This document shows, piece after piece, positions 1 through 3,765 of a DNA stretch of 50,080 nt. Each line of letters opens with the position of its first letter. Within the stretch, counting starts at the first letter, position 1. The stretch lies in contig JAYUQJ010000605.1 in assembly GCA_043756825.1 (NCBI GenBank), positions 1 to 50,080 on the forward strand, given 5' to 3'. A program made the translations under genes and the position numbers. Source of the DNA: Betaproteobacteria bacterium. GTDB lineage: Bacteria > Pseudomonadota > Gammaproteobacteria > Burkholderiales > Burkholderiaceae_C. Below the pieces are notes generated by a model. It did no database searches, was not told the origin of the DNA, and saw only the letters and a list, made by a program, of their open reading frames with translations.

Positions 1-92
1 CAGCCATAGCCCGGGCTATGGCGAGCATTTGCAACGACGAGCGGGTGCGTTTTGGGGTGCTGAGCGGGCATGATCGAAAAACTCTCAGTCTC
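1..92 (-). mobile_element. Partial copy of MITE type A (truncated by window edge)
   Basis: Reverse complement matches 23934-24025 at 90/92 nt; the terminus CTCTCAGTCTC (82-92) abuts TCA (93-95), the stop codon of the ParA-like gene. Confidence 0.85.
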
Positions 93-887
93 TCAGCCCC
101 GACCCTTGCGCCCGGGCGGCGTTGCGGGCTGCAGCGCCTGGTGCAGCGCCAGGTATTCCAGGGCCAGCTTGTGGCGCGGGTCCAGGTGGATCATCGGCAA
201 GGCCCGCTCGTGCGATTCCTTGATCTTCACACTGGCACTCAGGTAAGGCTGCAGCACCGGCAGGCCTTCATCGATCAACTCCTGCACCAGCCGCTGCGGC
301 AGATTGGCACGTGGCTGGAACTGGTTGACCACGATACCGCTGACCACCAGGTCGCGGTTGTGGTCGGCCTGGATCTCCTGCACGCTGTCCATCAAGGCGT
401 ACAGCGCCCGGCGCGAAAAATCATCGCAATCGAAGGGAATCAGGCAGCCCTGGCATGCGATCAGCGCAGACCGGGTGTAGAAATTCAGCGCGGGCGGGGT
501 GTCGATGTAGATGCGGTCATAGCCCTCCAGGCCGGCCAGGGCGTCGCGCAGCTTGTAGATCTTGTAGCGCGATTCCAGCTTGCCGTGCAGTTCCTCCAGC
601 TTCGGGCTGGACGGCAGCAGGTGCAGCTTGTCGAAAGGCGTGGCGGTGATGAATTCTTCGGTGGCCTGGGCACGCAGGGTGAACCTCAAGGTCTGGTCAA
701 AGAATTCGGCAGCGCTGTCGCCCAAGGCATCCGCACCCGCGCCCAGCAGGTAGCGGGTCGAATTGCCCTGCGGGTCGAGGTCCACCACCAGGGTGCGCAG
801 GCCCTGGTCGGCGCTGATCGCCGCCAGGTTGCAGGCGATGGTGGATTTGCCCACGCCGCCCTTCTGGTTGAAAACGACATAGCGCAT
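93..887 (-). CDS. ParA/Soj family ATPase (no parB in window)
   Basis: Deviant Walker [18 protein letters not shown] and IDTPP motifs; ATG at 887. Confidence 0.9.
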
Positions 888-1038
888 GAGGCTGAAGGCT
901 CCGGGTGCGGAAGACGCTCCCATGAACGCCAAGACTTGTTATTTTGCACTGCAGCAAGGTGCGCGCCGGCATCCCCTGATCTAGGGGCGCAAAGCCGGCT
1001 TGATTGTCATTGCGGCATCACGCCTTCAGCGCACAATA

Positions 1039-1168
1039 CGCTTGTCTTGGCGATAACCGACCGCACCAATGGGCGGGCTACCGGAACCCGTAACCGGCGC
1101 CAACACAAGCGGCTCAGGCGCAAGCCCGAACCGTGAGCAGGGGCCACTTCGGTGGCCCTTGGCTTTTG
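1039..1168 (+). ncRNA. Candidate structured ncRNA or cis-regulatory RNA: three-way junction, GCAA hairpin, UUCG-capped terminator
   Basis: P1 1039-1052/1098-1111 (13 bp, one mismatch), P2 CCGC/GCGG, P3 CCGG/CCGG, GCAA-loop hairpin 1111-1132, terminator 1139-1168; -10-like CACAAT at 1032-1037. Confidence 0.55.
1139..1168 (+). terminator. Intrinsic terminator with cUUCGg tetraloop
   Basis: AGGGGCCAC-TTCG-GTGGCCCTT followed by GGCTTTT. Confidence 0.7.
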
Positions 1169-1305
1169 TGCCCTGCCGCAGGCAGGCCCTTCGCGACGCG
1201 CGTCGCCGACCAGCACCGGTGCGGCACGTTAGGGACAATGCCTTATGCTCCGCCGCAGCTTCGACGCGCGAACGGCGCTCGTCAGCCATCCACAGGAGCA
1301 CCGCC

Positions 1306-1497
1306 TTGGCGACCCCGAACTATTCATACGAAAAACGCCAGCGTGAACTGGCCAAGAAGCGCAAGAACGAAGAAAAGCTGCTCAAGAAAAAGCAGTCCGG
1401 CCCGGCAGACGGCGTCGGCCCCGGCGACGACAAGCACAACAACGCCCCGGCCGACGCGACGCCAGGCGATTCGGGCAGCGCACCTGCCGGACGCTGA
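1306..1497 (+). CDS. Small basic protein (63 aa)
   Basis: AGGAG RBS then TTG at 1306; Lys/Arg-rich N-terminus ATPNYSYEKRQRELAKKRKNEEKL; terminator follows. Confidence 0.75.
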   Translation: MATPNYSYEKRQRELAKKRKNEEKLLKKKQSGPADGVGPGDDKHNNAPADATPGDSGSAPAGR

Positions 1498-1533
1498 TCG
1501 GTTCGGGCACCCGGCTGCCGGCACCAGGCAGGC

Positions 1534-1564
1534 AAAAAAAAACCGCACCCTGGGGTGCGGTTTT
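1534..1564. terminator. Bidirectional intrinsic terminator
   Basis: A-tract, AACCGCACCC-TG-GGGTGCGGTT hairpin, T-tract between convergent genes. Confidence 0.85.
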
Positions 1565-1604
1565 CATTTGGGCCGGCGCACCCGGCGCCGACCGGCAGGC
1601 TGAT

Positions 1605-1820
1605 TTACAGCGTGCGGATGTTGGCAGCCTGCAGGCCCTTGGGGCCTTGCTTGACTTCAAATTCGACGCGCTGGTTTTCGGCCAGGGTACGGAAGCCGCC
1701 GTTGTTGCGGATTTCGCTGAAGTGGGCGAACAGGTCCTTGCTGCCGTCTTCAGGGGTGATGAAGCCGAAGCCCTTGCCGTCGTTGAACCATTTGACGACG
1801 CCAGTTTGGGTGGTGCTCAT
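1605..1820 (-). CDS. cspA: Cold-shock protein (CspA family)
   Basis: GVVKWFN, RNP1 KGFGFI, RNP2 LFAHF; 71 aa; paralog identity uncertain. Confidence 0.95.
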
Positions 1821-2166
1821 GGAGAGTTTCCTTTGAGTGGATTGAAGATGAAAAGACAACCGCTCAGGCAAATGCCCAGCGCGGACAGAGACACTCAAGA
1901 AACGTCAAACCGGGAGTTCCAACCTGGACGGGCCTTCTGTAAACCCTTGCCGCGGGTGGCAAGAGCTGGACATCGGGCGGTACGGGGATAAGACCTTGTG
2001 GAAACGGCCTCGTGCATGTCTGTGCCCGGACTGTAACAGGGAACGGTACTGCAGGTGCGCCCGGGCATCGCTGGCGCGTCTAGAGGCGCTTGCCCAATCC
2101 AGGGCGGCCACGGCCGCAGCCTTCAGTCCCTATCATCTGGGTACAACGGGATTGCAAAGGCTGGGC

Positions 2167-3765
2167 ATGTTCGACTACGTGGTGATTGGTGGCGGGTCCG
2201 CCGGCTGTGTACTGGCTTCGCGCTTGACCGAAGACCCGGCGGTGCGGGTGGCCCTGCTGGAGGCCGGTGCGGCGGACCGCAGCGCAGTGATCCACTGCCC
2301 GGCCGGCCTGGCACTGATGTCCAAGATTCCCGCACTGAACTGGCGCTTCGATACCGTGCCGCAACCCGGGCTGAATGGCCGCAAGGGCTACCAGCCGCGC
2401 GGCAAGGTGTTGGGGGGGTCGAGTTCGGTCAACGCCATGGTCTACATCCGGGGCCAGCGTGCCGATTACGACGCCTGGGCCGCCGAGGGCAATCCGGGCT
2501 GGGGTTTTGACGATCTCCTGCCGTATTTCAAGCGCTCCGAGAACAACGCCCGCGGCGCCGACGCCTGGCATGGCAGTGGCGGCCCCTTGCAGGTGCAGGA
2601 CCTGCTGCAACCCCACCGGGGCAGCGGCCTGTTCGTACAGGCCGCGCAACAGGCCGGCCACGCCTTGAACCTCGATTTCAATGGCGCCAGCCAAGAGGGC
2701 GTCGGGCCCTACCAGGTCACCCACCGGGGCGGCGAACGCTGCAGCGCCGCCAAGGCTTACCTGGGCCTGGCCCTGGGACGCCCCAATTTGCAGGTGATCA
2801 CTGGCGCGCATGCCACCCGCATCCTGTTCGACGGCACACGCGCCAGCGGGGTCGAGTACCTGGTGGACGGCACACGCCAGCAGGTCATGGCCCGCGGCGA
2901 AGTGCTGCTCAGCGCCGGTGCCTTGCAATCCCCGCAATTGCTGATGCTCAGCGGCATCGGCCCGGCCGACCACCTGCAGGCACTGGGCATCGCCGTGCGC
3001 CAGGATCAGCCCGGCGTCGGCGCGCAATTGCACGACCATGTGGACGTGGTGCAGGTGGTGGACGCCCCGGCGGCCAAGGACTTGTTCGGCCTGTCCTTCA
3101 GCGGTCTGGTGCAGGCCGTGCAAGGCATCCTGGAATGGCGACGCCACCGCACCGGCATGCTGACCACCAATTTTGCCGAGGCGGGTGGCTTCATCCGCAG
3201 CAGCCCGGACAAGCAGGCGCCCGACCTGCAACTTCATTTCGTGATCGGCAAACTCATCGATCACGGCCGCAAGCCGGTCTTCGGCCACGGCTATTCCTGC
3301 CACGTCTGCCTGCTCGACCCCGAAAGCCGCGGCAGCTTGCGCCTGGCCAGCCCCGACCCCCATGCCGCGCCGCTGATCGACCCGGCCTTCTTGCAGGCGC
3401 CCGGTGATCTTGCTCGCATGGTGCGCGGTTTCAAACTGATGCGCGCGATTCTTGAGCAGCCCGCGCTGGCGGGCCTGGGCGGACGCGAGTTGGCAGTCTC
3501 TGCCGGCGCGCAGACCGACGAGCAGATCGCCCAGTACATCCGCAGCTACGCCGACACCATCTACCATCCAGTGGGCAGCTGCCGCATGGGACTGGGCACG
3601 CGGGACGTGGTCGACAGCGAGCTGCGGGTCAAGGGCGTGCCGGGGCTGCGGGTGGTGGATGCGTCGATCATGCCGCGCGTGGTGTCAGGCAATACCAATG
3701 CGCCGACGATGGCCATTGCCGAGAAAGCCTGTGACCTGATCAAGCAAAGCCGCCGCAGCGCTTGA
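2167..3765 (+). CDS. GMC family oxidoreductase (choline dehydrogenase-like)
   Basis: GGGSAG FAD motif, GKVLGGSSSVNAMVY, YHPVGSC, GNTNAP. Confidence 0.92.
   Translation: MFDYVVIGGGSAGCVLASRLTEDPAVRVALLEAGAADRSAVIHCPAGLALMSKIPALNWRFDTVPQPGLNGRKGYQPRGKVLGGSSSVNAMVYIRGQRADYDAWAAEGNPGWGFDDLLPYFKRSENNARGADAWHGSGGPLQVQDLLQPHRGSGLFVQAAQQAGHALNLDFNGASQEGVGPYQVTHRGGERCSAAKAYLGLALGRPNLQVITGAHATRILFDGTRASGVEYLVDGTRQQVMARGEVLLSAGALQSPQLLMLSGIGPADHLQALGIAVRQDQPGVGAQLHDHVDVVQVVDAPAAKDLFGLSFSGLVQAVQGILEWRRHRTGMLTTNFAEAGGFIRSSPDKQAPDLQLHFVIGKLIDHGRKPVFGHGYSCHVCLLDPESRGSLRLASPDPHAAPLIDPAFLQAPGDLARMVRGFKLMRAILEQPALAGLGGRELAVSAGAQTDEQIAQYIRSYADTIYHPVGSCRMGLGTRDVVDSELRVKGVPGLRVVDASIMPRVVSGNTNAPTMAIAEKACDLIKQSRRSA

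Follow-up and report, generated by a model that had tools for sequence, protein, structure and literature searches.

Positions 1032 to 1168 of the window (the whole 50,080-nt stretch of contig JAYUQJ010000605.1 from a betaproteobacterium that was analysed) had been predicted to encode a compact structured RNA with motifs resembling those of purine riboswitches. It was left open whether this RNA is a stand-alone small RNA or an attenuator or riboswitch of the small basic protein gene downstream. We therefore asked which of these it is and what it might do. All parts of the element lie on the plus strand. A Pho-box-like 11-bp direct repeat, GTCAT-N6-ATCAC (1004-1021), replaces the -35 element and ends 10 nt 5′ of the -10-like hexamer CACAAT (1032-1037), where homologues have CACAAT, CATACT or GATACT; from the promoter spacing, the start site is predicted near 1043-1045. 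It is followed by a P1-closed three-way junction (1044-1105; inner P1 1049-1052 with 1098-1101), which is supported by covariation in 86 stand-alone copies. Within it, a conserved 43-nt core (1055-1097) consists of the AAYCG strand as its 5′ part (1055-1060), stem P2 (1061-1064/1073-1076) with a loop L2 ending in GG, a variable linker J2/3 between P2 and P3 (1077-1080), and stem P3 (1081-1084/1094-1097) with the loop L3, AACCCGU (1085-1091). An accessory hairpin P4 with a GCAA loop (1110-1133) and an intrinsic terminator (1138-1168) made up of a cUUCGg stem (1138-1161) and a U tail complete the element.

A check of the sequence confirmed the proposed positions of CACAAT, P2, P3, the GCAA hairpin and the cUUCGg terminator. 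Folding of 1032-1168 gave -60.6 kcal/mol (z = -3.2), and 1 of 200 shuffled sequences folded equally well. The proposed three-way junction was recovered but the 13-bp P1 was not, as the prediction gives 12 pairs flanking a C·C mismatch. The outer P1 pairs start 5′ of the likely transcription start (~1043-1045), and in the 86 stand-alone homologues the inner four pairs were paired in 93.8% of cases versus 80.4% for the outer three. The GCAA and UUCG tetraloops are present in the window but are not conserved within the genus. P4 retains its CGG/CCG base, with a variable upper stem and loop, and is missing in some stand-alone copies and in the array and phage copies described below; the terminator stem was kept in all 29 aligned genus homologues. 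A coding reading of the invariant ATG (ORF 1069-1497) was rejected, as changes occur at codon positions 1 and 2 and indels break the frame.

The element is conserved in relatives. BLAST found it in 50 of 57 genomes of the same genus. Of 150 genomes of the family, 44 scored above a loose cut-off with covariance model R1; model R2 set apart 35 by a distinct gap in score, or 34 after removal of genome G108, in which the L3 loop is missing, and two copies were present in 8 of these 34 genomes. With a third covariance model and a family sample drawn somewhat differently, the count was again 34 of 150, in this case with G108 included. In samples of 150 genomes each from the order, the class and the phylum, the best matches outside the family scored at most 28 bits, compared to at least 39 bits for true members, and the top-scoring ones lacked the core on inspection. 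A pattern scan of species genomes yielded an estimated ~610 stretches, and the named true matches came mostly from Rubrivivax, Roseateles, Pelomonas, Ideonella, Methylibium, Rhizobacter and kin; Variovorax is present among the array copies. The core was found in three settings: as the stand-alone element, in T4-like phages and in tRNA arrays.

Covariation was likewise observed. In the set of 86 stand-alone copies, both partners vary in 11 of 15 pairs and in each of the four inner P1 pairs, and none of 500 shuffles reached the covariation score. For all settings together, 5 of 8 pairs change on both sides and the covariation lay above 500 of 500 shuffles, but ~25 rows of the MAFFT alignment A3 were out of register in P2, so that the P2 figures of this test and of the 96-sequence test are too low. 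The shuffle counts should not be read as probabilities, given related sequences and alignments that had been fitted to the model. For the core pair counts, alignment A3 was replaced by anchored parsing. In 177 distinct cores, the four P2 pairs were kept in 169, 169, 176 and 177 cases and the four P3 pairs in 159, 172, 177 and 177, the three complete figures being fixed by the search pattern itself; the same invariant bases were seen in sequences found pattern-free by BLAST or the covariance model. Of 181 pattern loci, 24 were dropped early, mostly as chance matches (L128, L172, L186 and L200 later scored as true), L105 was dropped from the rows, and exclusion of four of the 177 cores with fewer than six stem pairs left 173 distinct cores. 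L2 has 7-10 nt with A at its start and GG at its end, L3 reads AAC(C/U)CGU plus two variable bases, and the linker comprises 1-6 nt or, in L487, a whole hairpin. L3 also varies in length (AACCCGU, AACUCGU, AACCGU).

The conserved core, the covarying stems, the promoter layout of its own and the terminator bear out the view of a stand-alone structured RNA. Its lack of a known family was upheld as well: Rfam 15 placed no family on the stand-alone, array or phage form (window scan with E up to 5). A search of the open literature returned no paper on such an RNA. In a catalogue of 10,000 viral candidate RNAs (PMC10690425), motif terms gave no matches in the readable supplements, and this catalogue may hold the phage form unnamed. 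The element thus represents a real and apparently undescribed RNA family.

The neighbouring genes argue against a role as a leader. Upstream lies a divergent gene for a ParA-family ATPase (93-887, minus strand), which is a neighbour only. The small basic protein gene (1306-1497, plus strand; 63 amino acids, TTG start) begins 138 nt after the RNA and has a -10-like site of its own, TATGCT (1244-1249, plus strand). A riboswitch or attenuator of this gene, the second option of the original prediction, could draw on the shared strand, the short distance and a linkage that holds throughout the genus, and RNAalifold predicted for the genus sequences that the P1 strands may pair instead with P4 and with the tail of the terminator. 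These alternative pairs are ruled out by the covariation of P1, which covaries as drawn above. The gene follows the RNA within the genus only, and even there L007-L014 carry ~600 extra bases with an opposite-strand ORF between the two. Outside the genus, the genes downstream of the RNA are unrelated and often convergent (crude gene calls). From its sequence context, the RNA is not the leader of the small basic gene, and a riboswitch or attenuator function for it is largely refuted and very improbable. The small basic protein matched no Pfam or NCBIfam family; it has 943 relatives among 979 candidates, of which all named ones are hypothetical. It carries a conserved N-terminal PNYSYEKRQRELAKK motif, and its gene is convergent with cspA throughout the genus; in the window, a cspA thermoregulator-like leader and gene occupy 1535-1964 on the minus strand (60.9 bits, below the gathering score of 78).

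The motifs AUAA, AUGG, CUACC and CCGUAA, which had suggested a likeness to purine riboswitches, are present in the window but poorly kept among the 173 distinct cores, with 5, 38, 3 and 29 occurrences, respectively. The purine riboswitch model RF00167 gave no match in positions 1-3000 of the window at E up to 5 and none at E up to 10 in five of five carrier genomes. According to PMC12282948, the ligand pocket of the RF00167 RNAs (guanine-I, adenine, 2′-dG-I to III) needs U22, U51 and Y74 in J1/2, J2/3 and J3/1. Our RNA resembles these aptamers in the P1-P2-P3 three-way junction, in the stand-alone copies only, and in an L2 that ends in GG and an L3 that holds CCGU, two loops that would be able to kiss. 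It differs from them in its stems of 4-5 bp, a J2/3 of 1-6 variable nucleotides or a hairpin, an invariant 6-nt J1/2 and a dispensable P1. It has neither a J3/1 nor an equivalent of Y74, P3 running directly into P1 in the window, and it does not occupy a 5′-UTR place with an expression platform before purine genes. As J2/3 is variable and J3/1 is absent, the purine ligand pocket is gone. By these comparisons the RNA is not a purine riboswitch, and the resemblance is confined to the L2 and L3 loops, where it is real and clearest in the phage variants.

For these loops, the original prediction had proposed a contact between ATGGG (1069-1073) and CCCGT (1087-1091). Both motifs are present, but G1073 doubles as the closing base of P2. 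The GG:CC part of such a kissing helix is invariant, whereas its A-U end was found in only 53 of 96 sequences and none of four tested pairs showed a compensatory change. An 8-nt loop, AACCGUAA, is compatible with pairing of GG with two L3 pyrimidines, as is a C-to-U change in that loop L3. Extension of P2 and P3, possible in several phage copies, would shorten the linker to 0-2 nt and strain a side-by-side kissing fold. The P1 strand also changes its partner between settings: its downstream duplex has a median of -10.7 kcal/mol in stand-alone copies and -3.5 kcal/mol in array copies, in which an upstream hairpin reaches -16.3 kcal/mol, a change of partner that is like a circular permutation. 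AT-rich phage copies have no consistent P1.

The loop resemblance leaves one ligand-based explanation to be considered, namely that the core is a trans-acting aptamer for a small molecule of the starved state, such as the purine nucleotide ppGpp or a 2′,3′-cyclic nucleotide released by RNA breakdown. Its loop-loop scaffold would be like that of purine riboswitches, and its pocket would be new and formed by the AAYCG strand. The GG and CCGU loop motifs, the phage variants AUUGG and CCGUAA, the C-to-U change in L3 that retains a G·U pair (11 of 177 cores) and the many invariant bases in a small fold would agree with it. The variable linker, the missing J3/1 and the failure of the purine model in the five carriers apply here as well, and neither an expression platform nor a consistent regulated gene was found. 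To our knowledge, an RNA cannot titrate millimolar alarmones. We consider such an aptamer unlikely.

In the promoter, GTCA(C/T) occurs twice with an 11-bp period, 10-11 nt 5′ of the -10 hexamer, in 29 of 29 genus homologues examined. When a matrix built from the homologues, with the window's own copy left out, was run over the genome, the window site came 8th among 7.6 million positions and the promoter of pstS came 11th. The genome encodes pstS and phoB, both over the cut-off, and 17 of 18 pstS promoters of the genus score at least 12 with the same spacing to the -10 hexamer. Conversely, with a matrix derived from pstS promoters alone, a score of at least 9 was reached by 62 of 106 P1-closed copies, by none of 108 array copies and by none of 30 copies located beside phosphate genes. 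With this matrix the window Pho box itself scores 7.1, its second half-site being degenerate, and 44 of the 106 P1-closed copies are without a recognisable Pho box. Cultured strains with a Pho box include Ideonella margarita (L143), Roseateles aquatilis (L121) and Mitsuaria sp. (L107). In E. coli, the boxes of phoA and phoH are built in this way too and keep a strict spacing to the core promoter (PMC10294691). Given an 11-bp-period box 10 nt before the -10 hexamer in a genome that encodes PhoB and PstS, induction by PhoB at low phosphate is very likely.

Most other top-ranked matrix sites fall in reading frames. The highest-ranking Pho-box-like site of the genome (contig C530 of G000, near 2253) lies before a GAPDH-like gene, presumably of the ArsJ-linked type, and the site at rank 12 precedes a protein that starts with an EAL-like domain, as read from the sequence. 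Stand-alone copies without a Pho box (L040, L041, L045, L101, L176, L179, L186) often share a GATCG-like motif before the same CACAAT, which suggests a different regulator.

Besides the Pho box, the earlier reading had missed the copies of the core behind phosphate genes of phages and those in tRNA arrays. Relaxed patterns run over IMG/VR gave 34 distinct viral loci, two of which (L656 and L660) are probably chance matches. At 21 of the 34 loci, a gene for PstS, a Porin_O_P porin or a PlcP-like metallophosphoesterase was present, versus 0 of 152 chance-match control loci; among the AT-rich viral loci, phosphate-type genes were found in 21 of 25. Of the phage proteins, PstS scores above the NCBIfam cut-off and the porin belongs to Porin_O_P. 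The phosphoesterase resembles LpxH at a score below the cut-off, and we take it to be PlcP-like by analogy, from its pairing with glycosyltransferases and Pho boxes as in PMC4796936. Pho boxes were detected in 16 of 24 AT-rich viral loci compared to 0 of 33 controls, in L358 directly before the RNA, and Gp23 of the T4 type together with PhoH in three of three complete phage records tested. In the literature, cyanophage pstS is under host PhoBR control (PMC10976474) and plcP-agt lipid remodelling genes carry Pho boxes (PMC4796936). The phage copies described here end such Pho-box-headed units; those described in the accessible parts of the two papers consist of protein genes, with no non-coding RNA named.

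Several large AT-rich T4-like phages (L346, L350, L357, L361, L658) contain Pho-box-headed cassettes with pstS, a phosphate porin, a PlcP-like phosphoesterase and a glycosyltransferase, which possibly represent phage-encoded membrane lipid remodelling. In L338, L341, L344 and L355, terC-family genes lie just 5′ of the phage pstS, and one phage terC locus gave a weak match to the Mn2+ (yybP-ykoY) riboswitch, below the cut-off. A different arrangement was seen in Bcep22-like Burkholderia phages, in which the core is located between a DUF2303 gene and ssb and no phosphate genes are nearby. In BcepIL02 (L206:4140-4550), ~400 nt of GC-rich sequence with many hairpins lie 3′ of the core, and the annotation shows only a doubtful opposite-strand ORF there.

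The phage cores are closely tied to stop codons. The core starts at offsets of -2, -2, -2, -3, -8 and -199 relative to the stop codon of pstS, at -10 to -20 for the porin and at -1 for PlcP-like genes; the stop codon lies inside L2 for four glycosyltransferase genes, most offsets range from -57 to +14 nt, and in L352 and L359 the core lies inside the reading frame. Overlapping or abutting stop codons in this way also fits a role in cis at the end of the message, either as protection of the upstream message from 3′-exonucleases or as an aid to polymerase read-through of long operons, with the stand-alone copy as a decoy for the factor involved. The mid-operon place of the core in Bcep22-like phages and tRNA arrays points in the same direction. 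The commonest chromosomal form, however, has no upstream message and a terminator directly 3′, and many phage copies also have a terminator next downstream; we therefore judge an element acting in cis to be quite unlikely.

The 3′-end place in phage messages, together with the promoter and the terminator with its U tail, could equally be that of a base-pairing sRNA, in which the C-rich L3 or the AAYCG strand would serve as a seed for repression or activation of host mRNAs of the Pho response and the phage copies would be derived from 3′-UTRs. A precedent is PhoS of Bacillus, a Pho-induced 3′-UTR sRNA (PMC11522486). Our RNA is like PhoS in being a probable phosphate-starvation sRNA with a Pho regulator and a place at the 3′ end of Pho genes. 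It differs in phylum and locus, in its covarying compact core and in its occurrence in phages and tRNA arrays, a distinction drawn from the description of PhoS. Against pairing with mRNAs, complements of the loop were not enriched near the starts of 2332 predicted genes of the own genome (9 found versus 11.5 expected, crude gene calls), the loop length is variable, array copies have no terminator, and the invariant GG of L2 is better explained by pairing with L3. A base-pairing sRNA is thus as improbable, in our estimate, as the aptamer. Pairing with rRNA was no better than for shuffled sequences (23S, 5S and part of 16S rRNA of G107). Pairing of L3 with the tRNA T-arm was also rejected, GAAC being complementary to 27 of 30 predicted tRNAs but each full 7-mer to only 2 of 30.

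The third setting was found at 112 of 286 distinct loci, where the core is located among co-oriented tRNA genes. Its neighbours are tRNA-Glu upstream (62 of 77) and tRNA-Asp downstream (52 of 97), with gaps of ~40 nt upstream and 11 nt downstream. Array copies have no terminator and no phosphate link, and their closing P1 is replaced by the upstream hairpin. An upstream terminator hairpin (attenuator) was present in 55 of 61 arrays with enough flank. HNH genes were found in 24 and RtcB in 3 of 37 long array loci, and RtcR beside one; two megaplasmid arrays with 27 and 19 tRNAs also hold the core. In Anabaena, translational stress induces long tRNA arrays with HNH genes and, along with them, rtcB (PMC8421152). 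Our arrays are like these in that the core lies among co-oriented tRNAs with HNH, RtcB or RtcR nearby, and unlike them in having a non-tRNA unit with a fixed slot; a term search of the accessible part of PMC8421152 gave no ncRNA, Y RNA or attenuator in arrays.

The upstream terminator hairpin often lies behind a leader peptide of eight codons, MHPGEG(S/G)A; this peptide and a GAGGCCCGG...CCGGGCC terminator stand at the head of the arrays (e.g., L063, L064, L099, L109) and probably form a ribosome-stalling attenuator. The array leaders also contain a second conserved structured RNA of ~170 nt (L063:1250-1450; L064, minus strand, ~200 nt before the core; L065:1330-1490), with a closing stem near GCGGGUGUG and GGCACAGCCGC and an internal GUGCAGCGAG; its motif occurs in 42 of 61 arrays and had no Rfam match. 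In L378 and L382, array-type copies without nearby tRNAs lie directly before rtcB, at distances of 62 and 174 nt.

The fixed place between tRNAs, the proximity of RtcB and RtcR and the location at phage stop codons might be taken to indicate a small self-cleaving ribozyme or a processing signal for tRNA-array transcripts and phage messages, which would also suit the small size, an invariant core with two possible pseudoknots and the alternative strand connectivity. tRNA-processing ribozymes such as theta ribozymes abut tRNA ends. The core does not, no Rfam ribozyme model matched the element, and the stand-alone transcript would consist of the element alone, with nothing to process. This explanation, too, appears quite unlikely, slightly more so than the aptamer.

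The reading that we prefer, with a probability of about 40%, is that the RNA is induced by PhoB, acts in trans and binds, through its fold, a protein involved in RNA turnover. In this reading, a stand-alone non-coding RNA of ~125 nt would be transcribed by way of PhoB when phosphate is short; once released, it would act in trans, its compact fold binding a host protein with a role in RNA turnover or translation. Such action of a released RNA in trans is likely, because three expression routes all yield one core and the stand-alone copy lacks a message on which it could act in cis. Four short contigs of relatives from RNA runs, obtained in three of seven runs, cover the element at low depth but extend past its ends, so that no discrete transcript is shown by them. 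A recognised shape, that is, a bound fold, is suggested by the finding that the loop bases are invariant while the stems covary freely. Within the fold, the GG of L2 would pair with two L3 pyrimidines, possibly alongside a second pairing between the 5′ CG and the CG in L3; if this second pairing is real, every invariant G and C has a partner. The bases of these putative tertiary pairs are invariant and partly fixed by the search patterns.

The protein-binding step is inferred by exclusion and from the shared context of the copies. Phosphate starvation and damage to ribosomes or tRNAs both raise the breakdown of stable RNA. Because both inducing states share breakdown of or damage to stable RNA, the partner would most likely be a ribonuclease or its regulator, for which the RNA would be a decoy or modulator and thereby tune the breakdown of stable RNA. 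Phages would carry the RNA to keep this breakdown response of the host working for them.

Working models for such a function exist. ToxI, the antitoxin of type III systems, and Y RNAs are short RNAs, pseudoknotted or tRNA-sized, that bind a nuclease or an adaptor, and phages carry mimics of them. Unlike for ToxI, neither tandem repeats nor an adjacent toxin gene were seen for our RNA. An identity with Y RNAs of the YrlA type was rejected, as Ro60/TROVE was found in none of five carriers and YrlA did not match the element. The manA RNA motif (RF01745) is another structured phage RNA that often lies beside tRNAs; it gave no match at our loci, its best match in five carriers reaching 16 bits elsewhere.

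In a wider formulation, the core would constitute a new class of RNA domain, a doubly pseudoknotted effector of phosphate starvation whose action would be either to bind a nuclease or nucleotide signal or to cut RNA itself. Bacteria would deploy it from a Pho promoter and from stress tRNA arrays. In large freshwater phages it would be a captured auxiliary metabolic RNA, attached to the stop codons of genes for PstS, a porin and lipid remodelling. We place this formulation a little short of an even chance.

The known components of the response of bacteria to phosphate starvation, and those of the phage cassettes that hijack this response, are almost exclusively proteins. For the RNA fold described here, two independent lines lead to the phosphate response, one from the host Pho promoter and one from phage Pho cassettes, which comprise at least two sequence types. 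Together with the fixed slot in translation-stress tRNA arrays, this points to a link at the RNA level between phosphate economy and the upkeep of tRNAs and ribosomes. With a core of 43 nt, natural variants in three topologies and carriers among cultured non-pathogenic strains, this RNA should be cheap to study.
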